A program made the translations under genes and the position numbers. From the IMG/VR virus record IMGVR_UViG_3300032254_000010, positions 1 to 45,935 of that record: a stretch of 45,935 nucleotides of DNA. One strand, written 5' to 3'. Below, piece after piece: positions 5,368 to 22,386 of the stretch; positions within the stretch are counted from its first letter, which is position 1; every line of letters begins with the position of its first letter. The DNA comes from a virus. Taxonomy: Duplodnaviria > Caudoviricetes. The notes beneath the pieces are model-generated. The model ran no database searches. It worked only from the letters and a program-made list of their open reading frames with translations, and had not been told where the DNA came from.

Positions 5368-5449
5368 ATTTATTTAACTTCTCTTAATTGGTACAACGAA
5401 CACACAGAACACAGACAGAATAACACCAAAGGGATCGCTTTATACATAC

Positions 5450-5668: not shown

Positions 5669-5698
5669 ACTTAATACATTTCATAGGTATATATGTAT

Positions 5699-5731
5699 AT
5701 ATTACCAAAAAAAGACGAAAATGTCTAATCA
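5699..5731 (-). promoter_or_regulatory. Sigma70-type promoter for the leftward (structural) arm; copy 1 of a repeated motif
   Basis: On the - strand: TGAT-TAGACA-N17-TAATAT with extended TGG before the -10. The same motif occurs at 8370-8402 and 22409-22441. Confidence 0.6.
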
Positions 5732-5824
5732 GTTTTGAAAATAATTGATTTATTTTACATTATTTGGGGTTTAATCAATATTTAAGACTAGATCAGATGA
5801 ATATGGTTATTTATTAACCATTAT

Positions 5825-5908
5825 GGATACCATAATTTTTCTGAGAAAATTTGAGGGCTTCTGTAGTACCCTTTTAGGATACCATAATTTTTCTGAGAAA
5901 ATTTGAGG
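5825..5908. repeat. Two 32-bp direct repeats with an internal palindrome
   Basis: GGATACCATAATTTTTCTGAGAAAATTTGAGG at 5825-5856 and 5877-5908; core TTTTCT-G-AGAAAA is palindromic. Confidence 0.9.
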
Positions 5909-6062
5909 TTGCAATGCATTACTATATAGAATACCCGACCCCCCTTGTACCCGTACCCTTTGTCTGGGTATATGTATTTAATCTGACCTAGCAAGAATCA
6001 CGCCAAATAAGCCTTAGTTCTTGTGTTCAGATTATGGTGTATTATCCAAGTGTCTCATAAAA

Positions 6063-6135
6063 GACACAAGATGTAGTATGTTGTGGTATAAATGACACAA
6101 GATGTGGTGTGTTGTGGTGTATTGTGGTGTGTTGG
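6063..6135. repeat. Short tandem GACACAAGATGT / TTGTGGTGT repeats
   Basis: GACACAAGATGT occurs twice, followed by iterated TTGTGGTRT units in the non-coding divergence region. Confidence 0.7.
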
Positions 6136-6491: not shown

Positions 6492-6611
6492 ATGTTTGAG
6501 TACATCAACGGCGAGTACTACTGTAGTGAATACAACTTCACAGCTATTCAGGAAACAACTTACGAAGATATTATTTTAATGATAGAAAGAGGAGAGATTG
6601 ACAATGAGTAA
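6492..6611 (+). CDS. Small early hypothetical protein (39 aa)
   Basis: RBS GAGGA; MFEYINGEYYCSEYNF...GEIDNE*; overlaps the start of the next gene. Confidence 0.55.
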   Translation: MFEYINGEYYCSEYNFTAIQETTYEDIILMIERGEIDNE

Positions 6612-7371
6612 TACAACTATAGAAGCGTTTTACTTTTCAAATAAAGATAAAAAATTAAGATATAGAGATAATAGGATTATTCGTACAGGATTGACTCATA
6701 AAGTTAAGGGGGAAATAGAGCTATGTCATCGTGGTTTACACGCTTCTATAAATCCACTAGATGCCTTGCAGTATGCGCCTGATTCATATCTTTGGATAGT
6801 TGAATTATCCGGTGATATTATACAAGGTCAAGACAAAGTATGTGCATCTGAGAGGAAATACATACATGGATTCGACGCGACTAAATTATTAAAGGAGTTC
6901 GCTAAGAAACAAGCACTAATTAATATAGATAAATTTAAGAATTACTGTTCTGATGATCAATACAATAGTATTCTTAAATACTTACATAGTGATTACAAGG
7001 ATATTAATAAGTCTGCTATTGAGTCTGCTATTAAGTCTGCTGCTCGGTCTGCTCGGTCTGCTACTCAGTCTGCTGCTTGGTCTGCTCAGTCTGCTGCTTG
7101 GTCTGCTCGGTCTGCTGCTGCTAAGTACGCTGCTGAGTCTGCTTGGTCTGCTGCTGAGTCTGCTCGGTCTGCTGCTGAGTCTGCTGCTTGGTCTGCTCAG
7201 TCTACTGCTCAGTCTGCTGCTCGGTATGCTACTCAGTCTGCTGCTGAGTCTGCTGCTGAGTCTGCTGCTGAGTCTGCTGCTGAGTATGCTGCTTGGTCTA
7301 ATGCTCAATATGCTGCTAAGTCTGCTGCTAACAAAATGCTAACTGATATGATAAATGAGGTGATAAAATGA
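6604..7371 (+). CDS. Phage protein with CxxGLHAS N-terminal domain and Ser-Ala-Ala repeat tail (paralog 1)
   Basis: ELCHRGLHAS...DALQYA...VELSG...DKVCASERKY followed by SAA(E/W/R) repeats; paralogous to 9954..10718. Confidence 0.8.
   Translation: MSNTTIEAFYFSNKDKKLRYRDNRIIRTGLTHKVKGEIELCHRGLHASINPLDALQYAPDSYLWIVELSGDIIQGQDKVCASERKYIHGFDATKLLKEFAKKQALINIDKFKNYCSDDQYNSILKYLHSDYKDINKSAIESAIKSAARSARSATQSAAWSAQSAAWSARSAAAKYAAESAWSAAESARSAAESAAWSAQSTAQSAARYATQSAAESAAESAAESAAEYAAWSNAQYAAKSAANKMLTDMINEVIK
7012..7329 (+). repeat. Coding tandem repeat (TCTGCT[GCT]NNG)n
   Basis: 9/12-nt units directly visible. Confidence 0.9.
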
Positions 7372-8044: not shown

Positions 8045-8369
8045 ATGTCTGATTGTTTTAGGCTCTTAGAGAGGATCTAAGAGGTTTATACAAGTACCTA
8101 TATAATACACCCTTACCTGTGTTAAACCTTTCACAAAGACTCTGCTTGTCTCTCATTACATGTAAAATGATGATAGTACTTATAATAACACCATGTAATA
8201 CACACCTGTAACCACCAGACGATATTACGCTAAGTACCTGATATATCTATAAAATCTAGTATTCATGACATACTGAACACATACAAGTATACAGTTTATG
8301 TTTTATCTAGTTAATCTTATATTTATTTATTAAATATTAAGTACTAAGTATTAACATAGGTATACATAG

Positions 8370-8402
8370 ATGTTACCAAAAAAAGACAGTTTTGTCTAAT
8401 CA
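8370..8402 (-). promoter_or_regulatory. Copy 2 of the repeated promoter motif, pointing leftward into an ORF-free region
   Basis: On the - strand: TGAT-TAGACA-N17-TAACAT with TGG extension. Confidence 0.5.
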
Positions 8403-8415
8403 TGGAGAAAATAAA

Positions 8416-8928
8416 ATGAAATTTGAACAATACAAAATACAAGATCTTAAAAAGGCTGTAACTAGCTTGATTAAGAAACATAAGACAATTGCATCAGCTA
8501 CTCAAGAGATGTTGATGGGTGTGGCTTATGAACTCGAAGTTAATAAAGATGTGCTGGAACTAAATCGATTCGTTGTACAGTTAAGCGATATTGATACAGA
8601 TGGAAAAGTGCAATTATCCTCAACAGCGCGTGCTGTAGGTGTGTACATGCAAGCAATGTTACCTGTTAAGTGGTCTAAGAAAGATCAAGGGTTTAATGTA
8701 ACAGATGAAATCCTAGATTTTGACTTTGATGCAGCATGTGAAGCTATGGAAGCTACACGCTGGGATAAATACGGTGTGAAGGGTGCTGATGCTGAGTTCG
8801 ATGCTGACAATCTTCTCAAAAAAGCTATGGGAATGATCAATACAATTATTAAGCACCATAATGACGGCGACTTACAAGATGATGATCCAGCCTTCGTTGT
8901 AGCACGTCGAATTAAGAAAGTATTTTAA
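8416..8928 (+). CDS. Hypothetical early protein
   Basis: ATG at 8416 with RBS GGAG; long open frame. Confidence 0.75.
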   Translation: MKFEQYKIQDLKKAVTSLIKKHKTIASATQEMLMGVAYELEVNKDVLELNRFVVQLSDIDTDGKVQLSSTARAVGVYMQAMLPVKWSKKDQGFNVTDEILDFDFDAACEAMEATRWDKYGVKGADAEFDADNLLKKAMGMINTIIKHHNDGDLQDDDPAFVVARRIKKVF

Positions 8929-9128
8929 TGAGTATTATTTTTGCTTGGGAGAATGAAGCTAGGAATTATGGCAATCCTAAATTTACACATATAGTTTGGC
9001 ACAGTTCTACAGGTAGAATCTGGAGAATGTGCACAAGCGAAGAACATGCTATTAATGTAGTAGATTTGGAAACTGAGGCGTATAGGAATAATCCTGATTT
9101 CCAATTCCATTTTACGGCTATGTTATAA
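8928..9128 (+). CDS. Hypothetical protein
   Basis: 66 aa, TAATG coupling to the upstream gene. Confidence 0.6.
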   Translation: MSIIFAWENEARNYGNPKFTHIVWHSSTGRIWRMCTSEEHAINVVDLETEAYRNNPDFQFHFTAML

Positions 9129-9257
9129 AGTAACACATCACCTGAGAGAGATCCAGACGGTTAAGACTCCTCTTATTAACTGGACTGTAGAGAACAAAAC
9201 AGGTTCAAGCCTAAATGATTTGATGTTAGGCACTAATTCAAACAATGCAAAAGTTAA

Positions 9258-9379
9258 GTCGATTTCGTCTAGTGGAATCGCTTTATACATAGTAACCACT
9301 GCGTCAATCAAGTGTGTAAAGTTAAGGACGTCGCCTCTTCAAGGTGAAAACGGGAGTTCGAATCTCTCAATCGACACCA
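9258..9379 (+). tRNA. tRNA-Glu(TTC)-like gene with a 46-nt insertion in the D-loop
   Basis: Acceptor GTCGATT/AATCGAC plus A-CCA; D-stem GTCT/GGAC; anticodon stem TCGCC/GGTGA with loop TC-TTC-AA; T-arm GGGAG-TTCGAAT-CTCTC. Removing 9276-9321 leaves 76 nt. Confidence 0.8.
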
Positions 9380-9417
9380 AATTAATAGAAGTATTAATTT
9401 AATACAAGGAGATCAAA

Positions 9418-9783
9418 ATGTCTAAACCAAATGTAATTTCAATTGATGGTGTAAACTAAGTAAAAGAAGGGAATACTTTAGCCGAAGAAGTCGAAGGGTT
9501 GAAGTATTGTGTTGTAAGGACTTACAGTGCAGGGGTGCATATTGGATACGTTAAGGAATTCGGTATTAAGAACCCACAACACGCTGAACTACTTAAATCT
9601 CGTAGGCTTTATTCTTGGGAGAATGCGTGTAGTCTCTCTCAAGTAGCTGTAGATGGTGTTGGAGACTCTTCTAAAATAGCGATGGAAGTCCCTGTGATTG
9701 AGTTAACTGATGTTATAGAGGTGATTCCTTGCACAGAAAAATCTGCTGCGTTCTTTAAAGGAGCTAAGGTATGGAAAAATTAA
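9418..9783 (+). pseudogene. Conserved phage protein (YCVVRTYSAGVHxG family) with in-frame TAA at codon 14
   Basis: RBS AGGAG and ATG at 9418: MSKPNVISIDGVN*VKEGN...LKYCVVRTYSAGVHIG...SLSQVAVDG...EVIPC; stop at 9457-9459. The TTG at 9499 could restart translation. Confidence 0.65.
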
Positions 9784-9953: not shown

Positions 9954-10718
9954 ATGAAAACTATAAAAGCGTACTGGTTTCAACCAGAAAATGGTAAACT
10001 AGGTTATGATGATAACCGTACTGTAAAAGAAGGATTAACTCATAAGGTTGAAGGTGATCTTGCATTATGCTCTCATGGATTACATGCATCTATCAGACCC
10101 TTTGATGCTTTACAGTACACTAGAAGCTCCGTCTTATGGTTGGTCGAGCTTTCCGGTAATATTATTTATGGAGAAGATAAGGTATGTGCATCCGAGAGGA
10201 AATACATTCAAAAAAGAGATATATCAGAGACTTTAAGAGAATTCTCTAGGAACCAAGCATTGATTGGAATACATAAAATAAAACCTTACTGTACCGAAGA
10301 GGATTATAAGACCGTTATTAATTATTTGAAAACAGGCGACCCCTGTTTAAGGTCTGCTGCTCGGTCTGCTGCTCGGTCTGCTCGGTCTGCTGCTTGGTCT
10401 GCTGCTCGGTCTGCTGCTGAGTCTGCTGCTGAGTCTGCTGAGTCTGCTGCTGAGTCTGCTGAGTCTGCTGCTTGGTCTGCTGAGTCTGCTGCTTGGTCTG
10501 CTGCTTGGTCTGCTGAGTCTGCTGCTTGGTCTGCTCTGTCTGCTGCTGAGTCTGCTGCTGAGTCTGCTGAGTCTGCTGCTTGGTCTGCTGCTGAGTCTGC
10601 TTGGTCTGCTGCTTGGTCTGCTCTGTCTGCTGCTCGGTCTGCTGCTCGGTCTGCTGCTGAGTCTGCTGCTGATGAATCATTTACCTTGATGATTCAAAAA
10701 GAATTCTCTATACAGTAA
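9954..10718 (+). CDS. Phage protein with CxxGLHAS domain and SAA repeat tail (paralog 2)
   Basis: ALCSHGLHAS...DALQY...VELSG...DKVCASERKY; RBS GAGG. Confidence 0.8.
   Translation: MKTIKAYWFQPENGKLGYDDNRTVKEGLTHKVEGDLALCSHGLHASIRPFDALQYTRSSVLWLVELSGNIIYGEDKVCASERKYIQKRDISETLREFSRNQALIGIHKIKPYCTEEDYKTVINYLKTGDPCLRSAARSAARSARSAAWSAARSAAESAAESAESAAESAESAAWSAESAAWSAAWSAESAAWSALSAAESAAESAESAAWSAAESAWSAAWSALSAARSAARSAAESAADESFTLMIQKEFSIQ
10353..10670 (+). repeat. Coding tandem repeat (TCTGCT[GCT]NNG)n
   Basis: Same unit as 7012-7329, more homogeneous. Confidence 0.9.
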
Positions 10719-19589: not shown

Positions 19590-19741
19590 AATACGAAATA
19601 AGAAATCTAATTAATGTTACATACCAAGTTTATGAGTACACAGAAGATTCTGAAGAAGATGAAGGTATTTGCGTTTATCAAGGCAGCCTCTCAGAATGTG
19701 AAGCTTACTTGAACTTTCTTTATAAGGGTACTTTACAATGA
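19586..19741 (+). CDS. Small hypothetical protein (51 aa)
   Basis: ATGA overlaps at both ends; MKYEIRN...VYQGSLSECEAYL. Confidence 0.6.
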   Translation: MKYEIRNLINVTYQVYEYTEDSEEDEGICVYQGSLSECEAYLNFLYKGTLQ

Positions 19742-20229
19742 AACTGGTATTCGACATAGAGGCTAATGGCTTTTATGAAGAAGCAGATACGATATGGTGT
19801 ATAGTCGCTAAAGACATAGATACAGGGTACATGTACATATTCGATGACTCTTCTCAGTTCAAGAGCGTAAGACATGGTATTTCTGTGATTGAAGACGCAG
19901 ATGAATTGATCGGTAACAATATAATTGATTATGATCTCCGTCTAATTAAAAAGATATTTCCTGATTTTAAACCTAAGGGTTTAATTACAGACACGATGAT
20001 ACTATCTCAGATACTTCAACCAGATAGGGCTGGAGGACACTCACTAGAGGCAGCAGGAGAACGTATGGGACGTTCTAAACCTGAACATGAGGATTGGTCT
20101 CAGTTCAGTCCAGAAATGCTTCATAGGTGCTCTGAGGACGTTGAGATAAATGAACTGTTTTACAAAGAATTACTAAACGAAGCTTATGAAGATGTACAAG
20201 GTATTCCTTACGAGAGGATCTTTTTATGA
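19738..20229 (+). CDS. DNA polymerase A fragment 1: 3'-5' exonuclease domain
   Basis: ExoI FDIEANG, ExoII GNNIIDYDL, DTMILS, HSLEA, ExoIII RCSEDVE. Confidence 0.9.
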   Translation: MKLVFDIEANGFYEEADTIWCIVAKDIDTGYMYIFDDSSQFKSVRHGISVIEDADELIGNNIIDYDLRLIKKIFPDFKPKGLITDTMILSQILQPDRAGGHSLEAAGERMGRSKPEHEDWSQFSPEMLHRCSEDVEINELFYKELLNEAYEDVQGIPYERIFL

Positions 20230-20672
20230 GACCTAGTAAGATGAATGGGCTAAAGAACATATACGGGGCTAGAATGAAACATATTATATACAATGCAATC
20301 AGAACTCCAGATGGGACTATTTTAGAGTCTCACTCAACTCATGATTACAAAACATATCAAGACTTAAATGGAAAAGAATACATGATTGATGGCGGTAAAT
20401 CTTATGTACGTTCTTCAGTCAACGGTGACGAAGAGTACTTGACAGTCTATGGTGATGAACCTCATGAGAAAATACGAGAAGTCTTTACATGGGGAACTTA
20501 CGGTAAATACAGTGATCAACCTCTTAAGTTTATTGCTCTTAAGACTATTAAAGATAATCACCTTCCCGCTATATTAGAGACTCAAATACACCTTGATCCA
20601 CATATCCGTAAAATATTTGAAGATGAAATTAATTACCGCATGACAGAAAAAAAGGTGACTAAGGATAGCTAA
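20226..20672 (+). CDS. Hypothetical phage protein inserted between polymerase fragments
   Basis: NAIRTPDGTILES...HDY...IDGG.SY.R, WGTYG; unrelated to polymerase. Confidence 0.7.
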   Translation: MRPSKMNGLKNIYGARMKHIIYNAIRTPDGTILESHSTHDYKTYQDLNGKEYMIDGGKSYVRSSVNGDEEYLTVYGDEPHEKIREVFTWGTYGKYSDQPLKFIALKTIKDNHLPAILETQIHLDPHIRKIFEDEINYRMTEKKVTKDS

Positions 20673-20769
20673 CGTATTCTTTACCTCAGATCTACATTTT
20701 GGACATGATAATTTAGATGAATTAAGGGGTGAGATCAATGATAAAAAGATCTTTACAAACAGCGTTTGA
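20665..20769 (+). pseudogene. N-terminal remnant of a calcineurin-like metallophosphoesterase
   Basis: Frame reads (ATA)IANVFFTSDLHFGHDNLDELRGEINDKKIFTNSV*; contains the DxHxGH motif but has no ATG start. Confidence 0.6.
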
Positions 20770-21472
20770 GAATGAATCAATCGTAAGGAGGATTTTAAGT
20801 GAACAGACACAAGCAGGGGTCAGATTCGATGTCAAAAGAGCCAATAGGTATTTGGCATATATCGAGCAAAAAAAATCACAATTATACAAGCAAATTCGTC
20901 CTATGTTACAGCTTGAGGTCATCAAGCCTTACAGTGCACCTGTTAATAAACCATTCCTCAAAAATGGCTCGTATTCGAGTACGTCACAGAAATGGTACGG
21001 AGATTCTGTTGACATTGTCGGAGGCCCGTTTACAAGAGTTGAATTCAAAGAACCAGATATCGGAAGTCGTCAAAAGCTACAGTCTCAACTCCTCAGATTG
21101 GGGTGGAAACCACGACACTTTACTGAAAAAGGCAATCCAAAACTTACCGTTAATTCTCAACCGTGTGAATCACTAAGTGAGATTGATTCTCAGGTCGGGT
21201 CAGATATAGCGTTGTGGTATGTACTAGCACACAGAGAGTCTCAAATCAACGGTTGGCTGAGTCATGTCAGACCTAATGAGAGGATTCCTCAGGAGGCTTT
21301 TACAATAGGTACACCTACCTATAGGATGAGACATAAGATCCTTGTAAACGTCCCTAAGGCTGCTAAACACGTAGTATTTGGTAAGCAGATGAGATCATTG
21401 TTTACTGTACCGAGGGCTGCTGAAGGCATGAAACTATATATAGAATGGAAGGAGAAAGATAATGCCTTATAA
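20738..21472 (+). CDS. DNA polymerase A fragment 2: thumb / N-terminal polymerase region
   Basis: EQTQAGVRFD, GSRQK...GWKPRHFTEKGNPK, HRESQINGWL, GTPTYRMRH...NVPK...GKQMRSLF. Confidence 0.9.
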   Translation: MIKRSLQTAFENESIVRRILSEQTQAGVRFDVKRANRYLAYIEQKKSQLYKQIRPMLQLEVIKPYSAPVNKPFLKNGSYSSTSQKWYGDSVDIVGGPFTRVEFKEPDIGSRQKLQSQLLRLGWKPRHFTEKGNPKLTVNSQPCESLSEIDSQVGSDIALWYVLAHRESQINGWLSHVRPNERIPQEAFTIGTPTYRMRHKILVNVPKAAKHVVFGKQMRSLFTVPRAAEGMKLYIEWKEKDNAL

Positions 21473-21713
21473 GAGGACACCTAAAGTAGCAGGTGAGACT
21501 TATTTTGCTGGGATGGATTGTACATGCATGGCGTATAATGAAAGTGAATGCTGCTGTGATGTTGATTGGACAGACGAAAAAGTGTATGTTCTACGAGAGA
21601 GAATAGGTAAACTTGAAACAGCGCTTAAAGAGATTATTCAGATTAGCGATTATACTAATGCAGGTGATAATTGTAAACTACTGGCTATAGAGGCTCTTGA
21701 AAATGAAACCTAA
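21462..21713 (+). CDS. Cys-rich hypothetical protein inserted between polymerase fragments
   Basis: RBS AAGGAG; DCTCMAYNESECCCDVDW followed by a coiled-coil. Confidence 0.7.
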   Translation: MPYKRTPKVAGETYFAGMDCTCMAYNESECCCDVDWTDEKVYVLRERIGKLETALKEIIQISDYTNAGDNCKLLAIEALENET

Positions 21714-22386
21714 AGTTATGGTTGGCCACGATGCCTCTGGACTAGAACTCAGAATGTTAGCTCATTATTTGAATGATCCTAAATTCACTAAGGCTGTAAC
21801 AGAAGGAAAGGAGAGTGAGGGAACAGATGTCCACACAATCAATCAAGAAATGGCAGGATTACCCACAAGAGATCATGCAAAGACGTTTATCTATGCGTTC
21901 AATTATGGAGCAGGGGATGAAAAAATTGGAAGCATTATTGGAGGATCTCGTAAAGAAGGGAGGAGAATTAAATCTAGATTCCTTAGAGCTAATCCGAAAC
22001 TGGCAGACCTTATCAAGCGTGTACAGCGTGCTGGAGAAAGAGGATGGTTACTAGGCTTAGACGGACGGAGAATTCATCTAAGACGTGATTTCCAGGGAAA
22101 GGTACAAGTACATAAGGCGCTTAATACTCTCTTACAAGCAGCTGGAGCTGTTGTAATGAAGCATTCTATTGTTTTATTAGATCAATATATAAAGGAAGAA
22201 GGTCTCAGTTCCATTAAACTAATTGATATGCACGATGAGGCACAATTCGAATGTCTTCCAGAAGAAGCAGAGAGACACGGAGAACTTGCAGTACAAAGTA
22301 TCAGAGATGCTGGTACATTACTAGAACTTAATTGCCCGTTAGACGCTGAATACAAGATTGGTGCTAATTGGGCTCAGACGCATTAA
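21703..22386 (+). CDS. DNA polymerase A fragment 3: catalytic palm/fingers (Tyr762 type)
   Basis: Motif A DASGLELR, DVHT, motif B RDHAKTFIYAFNYG, ALNTLLQ, motif C MHDE, IGANWAQTH. Confidence 0.93.
   Translation: MKPKVMVGHDASGLELRMLAHYLNDPKFTKAVTEGKESEGTDVHTINQEMAGLPTRDHAKTFIYAFNYGAGDEKIGSIIGGSRKEGRRIKSRFLRANPKLADLIKRVQRAGERGWLLGLDGRRIHLRRDFQGKVQVHKALNTLLQAAGAVVMKHSIVLLDQYIKEEGLSSIKLIDMHDEAQFECLPEEAERHGELAVQSIRDAGTLLELNCPLDAEYKIGANWAQTH

Follow-up and report, generated by a model that had tools for sequence, protein, structure and literature searches.

Some phage tRNAs are known to carry altered anticodon loops, proposed in the available part of PMC10264068 as a means of escaping the host's anticodon nucleases; the main text of that paper, as far as the available part extends, does not use the terms 'D-loop', 'Glu' or 'position 33'. 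In archaea, introns can lie in the D-loop of tRNA genes, where, according to the accessible portion of PMC3241643, the endonuclease EndA cuts at a bulge-helix-bulge (BHB). Fragments of tRNA genes are also found at the ends of tyrosine-integrase islands, as described in the available part of the Islander paper (PMC4383910), which places the crossover sites at the anticodon loop, the T-loop and the T/acceptor junction and does not contain the term 'D-loop' in that part of its text. A D-loop-extended phage or bacterial tRNA was not found described in the largely open-access main texts searched.

The gene described here is a tRNA-Glu of 122 nt at positions 9258-9379 of the window, by which we mean the whole stretch of DNA analysed. 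This virus record is complete, at 45,935 bases, and has terminal repeats of 127 nt. The sequencing runs listed as containing the region are microbial-mat DNA metagenomes, with no RNA run among them. Podovirus structural genes are present, together with genes for a primase/helicase, a split family A polymerase and a sigma-like protein, and the terminase is 61-63% identical to the counterparts in Lentibacter phages and Roseobacter phage SIO1. We take the phage to be probably Zobellviridae-like, a label given by analogy with the SIO1 and Lentibacter phages and applied here on gene content and terminase identity rather than on a tree. One Zobellviridae phage has been reported to have no tRNA or integrase, per the available part of PMC9960094.

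Several other features of the genome were recorded along the way. The family A DNA polymerase at 19738-22386 consists of three ORFs with two unrelated ORFs interposed. A 50-nt direct repeat (5807-5856 and 5859-5908) and a set of GTGTT-rich repeats (6057-6130) lie in divergent intergenic DNA at a switch in GC skew and are origin-like. There are two paralogous DUF7666 genes, at 6598-7371 and 9954-10718, with long tracts of 9-12 nt repeats. A 42-nt imperfect repeat (79%) is found at 5690-5731 and 8361-8402, both copies including an AGAC-N6-GTCT palindrome and, on the minus strand, a sigma-70-like site, and the site in the 8361-8402 copy would face antisense into the early genes.

The tRNA-Glu is the sole tRNA gene found in the phage and has no intact twin. 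It lies on the + strand, in sense orientation within the early genes, with a 66-codon ORF (8928-9128) before it and a DUF6948 gene after it. An overlapping 60-aa ORF (9220-9402) was rejected as a true gene on the weak evidence that it has no PHROG family and no usable Atlas match, and the upstream stretch 9129-9257 was rejected as a second structured RNA (folding z 0.31). Short D-arm-like and T-arm-like fragments are present 5' of the tRNA at 9150-9212, possibly a decayed second tRNA, with folding that is not significant. The parts of the gene are as follows:

9258..9275, + strand: tRNA-Glu 5' part, with the acceptor 5' strand (G1, U2), U8, the D-stem 5' strand (U11, U13), A14, G15, G18 and G19
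9276..9321, + strand: insertion of 46 nt after G19, its boundary slidable 1 nt leftward, unchanged in five runs
9280..9322, + strand: predicted extra arm, a stem of 10-11 bp with G-U pairs and a 21-nt loop (pair probabilities 0.68-0.83)
9293..9300, + strand: TAACCACT, reverse complement of the junction, complementing the 5 nt before and the 3 nt after the insertion point
9302..9305, + strand: CGTC, which repeats the D-stem 5' strand in direct orientation and could form an alternative D-stem (predicted probability 0.12)
9322..9379, + strand: tRNA-Glu 3' part, with A21, G22, A24, the anticodon loop U32 C33 UUC A37 A38, a 4-nt variable loop (A46, no residue 47), the T-arm, the acceptor 3' strand, A73 and an encoded CCA

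We read this gene, tentatively and at somewhat less than an even chance, as an unspliced five-arm tRNA-Glu(UUC) that keeps its insert and is likely chargeable. The two parts flanking the insert are intact. All four cloverleaf stems have 0 mispaired positions, with 3 G-U pairs, which is within the range of 56 distinct phage tRNA-Glu comparators with C33 (36 of them likewise with 0 mispaired positions), and the 7-bp acceptor, intact arms, encoded CCA and TTC anticodon are present as set out in the preliminary description, in coordinates and in sequence. The identity elements by which GluRS recognizes E. coli tRNA-Glu, as listed in the available part of PMC9976931, form a complete set here (G1-C72, U2-A71, U11-A24, U13-G22:A46, no residue 47, and U34 U35 C36 A37). 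The gene departs from the canonical form in its D-loop and overall length, being 122 nt instead of about 76 nt, and in having C33 in place of U33. Excising 9276-9321 leaves an exact 76-nt tRNA, as had been claimed. ARAGORN made no tRNA call anywhere in the window as given and called a 76-nt tRNA-Glu(ttc) once the insert was deleted; Rfam matched the 3' part alone, at 22 bits, below the gathering score of 29.

C33 is indeed present, and the earlier suggestion that it is unusual does not stand. A pattern demanding C33 retrieved 65 viral stretches, 64 of them ordinary tRNA-Glu by script and by eye (ARAGORN confirming 58 of the 60 given to it), and 120 cellular stretches from 22 of the 64 GTDB parts, with the anticodon stem paired in 115; these counts come from a pattern that requires C33 and lack a U33 denominator, so that a phage enrichment of C33 cannot be claimed from them. 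As C33 recurs in working-looking phage and cellular tRNA-Glu genes, we rejected it as a sign of decay. The C33 tRNA-Glu(UUC) loci are L005-L069 and L180-L299, with an estimated 350 or so GTDB stretches, often from Patescibacteria, Planctomycetota and Myxococcota.

The insert itself is not an assembly artifact. Contigs from sequencing runs X1, X2, X3 and X4 cross the whole gene and one X5 contig crosses the insert, with 0 differences throughout, and run X6 gave only short unrelated pieces. Runs X1-X3 are possibly the source of the record, whereas X4 and X5 are not so marked. An identical insert in contigs of five runs rules out misassembly, and the observation of an inserted tRNA is thereby confirmed. 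The insert-less joint is absent from the contigs of all five runs, contigs being prone to drop rare variants.

For the 122-nt RNA, the MFE and centroid predictions both give a cloverleaf that keeps all four arms and gains one extra arm in the D-loop, at -30.9 kcal/mol (z -1.91), with 9 of 200 shuffles equally stable. The 10-bp stem noted before, 9281-9290 with 9312-9321 around a 21-nt loop, is real in this predicted fold and can grow by the pair G9280-U9322. An end-to-end stem of that length arose in 17 of 20,000 shuffled inserts, and the insert folds better on the + strand than on the - strand (-8.5 vs -4.6); its overall folding energy is ordinary, 210 of 2000 shuffles being as stable. The normal D-stem has a predicted probability of 0.77 with the insert vs 0.99 without it, and this retention is not special, since the D-stem is kept equally well by about 30% of other 46-mers (149 of 500 from shuffling, 155 of 500 from the genome).

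In an alternative fold, lying 0.6 kcal/mol above the MFE and making up 12-14% of the ensemble, AGTGG pairs with CCACT and the CGTC of the insert substitutes for the D-stem strand. The preliminary description had pointed out that CCACT can pair with the D-loop AGTGG, and it can, with a predicted probability of 0.14 vs 0.77 for the normal D-stem; the conformational switch that it proposed is, by the predicted energies, thermodynamically possible. CCACT turns out to be a portion of the 8-nt reverse complement of the whole junction. Such a complement arose by chance in 78 of 20,000 shuffles (0.4%) and in 2 of 998 genomic 46-mers, an 8-mer matching the tRNA anywhere, direct or inverted, arose in 335 of 20,000 shuffles, and this complement, like the stem and the match to 5431-5448 treated below, is a non-random feature found after the fact. 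On the minus strand, 8979-8990 matches the 3' end of the insert and the first exon bases by eye at 11 of 12 positions, a possible further template that is likely within chance.

For D-loop insertions in other tRNAs, a GCTC/GAGC D-stem pattern retrieved 36 viral and 121 genome stretches (the genome scan covering 20 of 64 parts), and after duplications and unpaired matches were removed, 39 D-loop-insert hits remained in 38 of the 157 loci. The archaeal inserts found measure 32-45 nt. A 4-bp BHB helix near position 20/21 is present in 11 of 12 archaeal genes and in all five viral tRNA-Ile(TAT) hits, three of which come from two records named GVMAG. Four viral tRNA-Ile(TAT) loci (L304, L314, L330 and L333) have D-loop inserts of 27-35 nt with a clean BHB and resemble archaeal non-canonical introns; two of the four are from GVMAG records (giant viruses).

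In contrast, the best BHB-like fold of the window's insert forms 3 of the 4 helix pairs, and its excision would take out G18-G19, in agreement with the earlier remark that no clean BHB is present. Many Bacteroidales inserts reach 4 pairs at scattered cut points, which makes the BHB test permissive and the failure of the window's insert more telling. A spliced intron, with the 46 nt excised under the guidance of the junction-complementary segment to give a 76-nt tRNA, is for these reasons very improbable, even though removal of the insert does yield a normal tRNA-Glu. The internal guide sequence of a group I intron complements the last bases of the 5' exon and the first bases of the 3' exon, and the junction-complementary segment is laid out in the same way, the terminal base of the insert also being G. 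Nevertheless, a group I or group II core would not fit into 46 nt, the locus matches no ribozyme family in Rfam, and neither a tRNA_int_endo (splicing endonuclease) nor an RtcB match was found in the phage genome. As such, the processed, intron-containing tRNA offered as one option in the preliminary description is not supported.

A different kind of D-loop insertion is found in Bacteroidales, where copies of tRNA genes (Phe, Gly, Thr, Lys and CAT) are split after the D-loop GG by hairpins of 33-44 nt with short loops of 3-4 nt. We found 11 such copies in 10 genomes. An intact twin exists for 10 of them, and nine of the 11 lie 1.6-11.9 kb behind the intact gene on the same contig. The copies are full-length, and in each the 5' piece corresponds to the tRNA that is targeted. 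Integrase domains (tyrosine integrase) adjoin the intact tRNA in 4 of 4 islands scanned, and a fifth island has a 399-aa ORF at the integrase position. These hairpin copies look like island ends, not working tRNAs, and with an intact twin in 10 of 11 bacterial cases they provide no precedent for a working five-arm tRNA. Hairpin-split island ends of this type were not found in the literature searched. The islands are at G006:C1:278300-284900, G006:C1:4182500-4189400, G007:C1:337600-348500, G008:C5 and G009:C1, with further ones in G011, G012, G015, G016 and G017 (loci L457-L473 and L480-L494).

The Bacteroidales copies raise a rather unlikely explanation in which the insert is a DNA element and not an RNA feature, i.e., a tiny target-copying insertion element or a captured att-site copy. 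Within the insert, the junction is repeated in inverted form and the D-stem strand in direct form, the insertion point lies just past the D-loop GG as in the Bacteroidales copies, and a TAA stands directly before the window's tRNA, as it does before 12 of 13 Bacteroidales copies vs 2 of 56 ordinary phage tRNA-Glu. Against this, the phage genome has no tyrosine integrase or resolvase match and no intact twin, and the insert has neither a target-site duplication nor the 3-4 nt capping loop of the Bacteroidales hairpins. Its 18-nt 5' part is the only part that recurs, the 6 matches to its stem-arm patterns elsewhere all being without the inner sequence. The closest of 212 other tRNA-Glu 3' parts, with GTDB partly scanned, matches at 41 of 54 positions, so that no candidate attB was found.

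The recurring 5' part of the insert has its counterpart in the late region of the genome:

9274..9291, + strand: 18-nt segment matching 5431-5448, 17 of 18 identical, with 9274-9279 predicted to be mostly unpaired, a possible toehold
5431..5448, - strand: partner site in the intergenic leader running from the zinc-ribbon (FmdB-like) gene to the tail-spike gene, a possible insert template or RNA target

The match starts at the D-loop GG, and since the partner site lies in a late-strand leader, the tRNA is antisense to that leader. At least 15 exact bases shared with the genome arose in 12 of 3000 shuffles. The real genome holds 38 clusters of comparable 18-mer pairs, about 18 of them outside obvious repeats, and on this background the chance of the 5431-5448 match is put at 1-2%. 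This match raises the possibility, quite improbable in our estimation, of an antisense switch on a tRNA scaffold, in which the toehold 9274-9279 would engage the late leader, the stem would open upon it, the alternative D-stem would form and tail-gene expression would be damped. A combined form, a two-state riboregulator in which a chargeable five-arm tRNA would also carry, in its D-loop arm, an antisense guide gated by a toehold and directed at the late leader of the phage itself, seems to us no more credible; if it were true, a single RNA would serve both glutamate decoding and the timing of late genes.

The predictions that favor such a switch are a tRNA/leader duplex of -21.7 kcal/mol with a cofold gain of -9.5 kcal/mol, which 7 of 298 control segments equal, a toehold 62-95% unpaired, and the small energy gap to the alternative fold. 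At 5727-5699 on the late strand there is also a sigma-70-like promoter, by consensus match only, which suggests that the late genes need timing control. Set against these are the 18 or so other 18-mer pairs in the genome, the position of the site about 65 nt upstream of the start codon and off the ribosome-binding site, the absence of the motif from the related phage loci scanned, and the fact that DNA copying accounts for the match without any function. A separate reading of 5431-5448 as a conserved late promoter was rejected, as the upstream regions of tail-gene homologues (n=36) do not share the motif. TATAAAG was found among these 36 regions only in the second record of the same phage and in one mis-sliced row (L102), and L155 and L156 have TTGAC/TATAAT promoters upstream of the tail-gene homologue instead. 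A look-alike of 5431-5448 at position 650 is inside the portal gene, and apparent motif matches in L156, L166 and L170 fall in coding DNA.

Pattern scans of viral, metagenome and genome sequences found no tRNA-Glu with a D-loop insert of this kind, and the homolog search proposed in the preliminary description thus came back without a relative carrying the insert. Long-D-loop tRNA-Glu patterns retrieved 2 and 16 stretches from viruses, 5 from genomes and none from metagenomes. All were set aside, as they proved to be ordinary tRNAs preceded by a fragment, chance matches, a chimera (L086) or a duplication (L088); L088 is a Pseudomonas brassicacearum tRNA-Glu in which an internal tandem duplication extends the D-loop region. 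In the metagenomes, an anticodon-arm pattern retrieved 7 stretches, of which one belongs to the same genome, one is a chance match and five are ordinary C33 tRNAs. A custom scan of 81 related-phage loci (832 kb, mostly fragments) found four normal tRNAs and no expanded one, and ARAGORN run on related loci with a lowered threshold and introns allowed gave noise only. Relatives reached through the neighboring gene, the helicase and the terminase included none with this tRNA, the closest records being fragments that possibly do not reach the region. Terminases P0002-P0009 are 78-87% identical to that of the phage.

The gene directly downstream is also interrupted:

9418..9783, + strand: DUF6948 gene, cut short at codon 14 by an in-frame stop (9457-9459)

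Homologues of DUF6948 are about 122 aa long, and 5 of 5 inspected read through codon 14 with tyrosine. The stop is fixed in all sequencing runs covering the gene; apart from it, the gene shares 81% identity with its best homologue. That two neighboring genes are both interrupted suggests a recent loss of function in the region, and that the region has tolerated such loss counts against function of the tRNA. The foremost alternative to our reading, unlikely but well worth weighing, is a recently disabled tRNA, in which a templated insertion (template switching or illegitimate recombination with GG microhomology) would have broken a normal phage tRNA-Glu, the exons being intact merely because little time has passed and the stem being a by-product of fold-back copying. 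The nonsense codon in an otherwise well-matched neighbor, the lack of an insert-bearing relative in the scans, the preservation of the fold by about 30% of random inserts, and the resemblance of the insert to a patchwork of local sequence, with the 5431 match beginning at the boundary GG, are all in keeping with it.

What speaks against disablement is the state of the copies. Measured against its apparent templates, the insert shows differences at 3 of 28 positions (1 of 18 and 2 of 10), yet the exons are undamaged; both differences in the 3' arm retain pairing as G-U on the + strand, and the contigs of five runs hold no insert-less allele, bearing in mind that rare variants drop from contigs. 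Drift of the copies beside undamaged exons fits selection, provided that the differences built up over time. If they instead arose during copying, the argument fails and the disabled gene becomes the better reading. This comparison of template drift with intact exons is the deciding argument for the five-arm tRNA, and it is an indirect one. Also weighing against the five-arm tRNA are its being a singleton and the predicted fall of the D-stem from 0.99 to 0.77, and an arm beside G19 may get in the way of RNase P or the ribosome at the elbow of the tRNA.

With these reservations, the extended tRNA remains the best supported of the three options in the preliminary description, on its intact exons and predicted arm, so that the interpretation offered there holds in part. 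In the five-arm reading, phage DNA was likely copied as a template (5431-5448, the opposite-strand D-loop and fold-back) to produce the insert. Transcription of the early operon would give a tRNA precursor, host enzymes would trim both ends to a mature RNA of about 122 nt, and host GluRS would likely glutamylate it. Its location in the variable part of the D-loop and its closure upon itself are the likely reasons why the insert was kept. On the ribosome, the five-arm tRNA would likely supplement host tRNA-Glu during infection, and C33 or the arm might offer protection against tRNA nucleases.

At the level of sequence, the gene is real and unusual, an apparently new variant of phage tRNA, so far in one genome only. 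If the 122-nt RNA is charged and used, then tRNAs tolerate a large arm beside the elbow, and a working gene would represent a natural tRNA shape overlooked by standard gene finders; as ARAGORN and Rfam both miss it, phage tRNA counts would in that case be too low. If the gene is dead, it is a clear record of a tRNA gene gaining a structured D-loop insertion from local sequence. The locus also offers a small and cheap test of the extent of D-loop expansion that is accepted by RNase P, GluRS and the ribosome.

Compared with known systems, the window insert resembles a group I internal guide in having a contiguous complement to the exon ends and a terminal G, and differs from a group I intron in being 46 nt long, with no catalytic core and no U-G at the 5' splice site. 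Similar to the Bacteroidales island-end copies, it is a hairpin just past the D-loop GG of a full-length tRNA preceded by TAA; those copies mostly have a twin (at 1.6-11.9 kb in 9 of 11) and, in the 4 of 4 islands scanned, an integrase, whereas the window has neither. With the archaeal D-loop introns (available part of PMC3241643), it shares a short structured D-loop insertion of similar size, set here in a bacterial phage without a BHB, endonuclease or RtcB. Lastly, with the phage tRNAs in the available part of PMC10264068, it shares intact identity elements together with a non-standard anticodon-loop base, C33 in this case; those tRNAs are of normal length, whereas the window tRNA extends to 122 nt.
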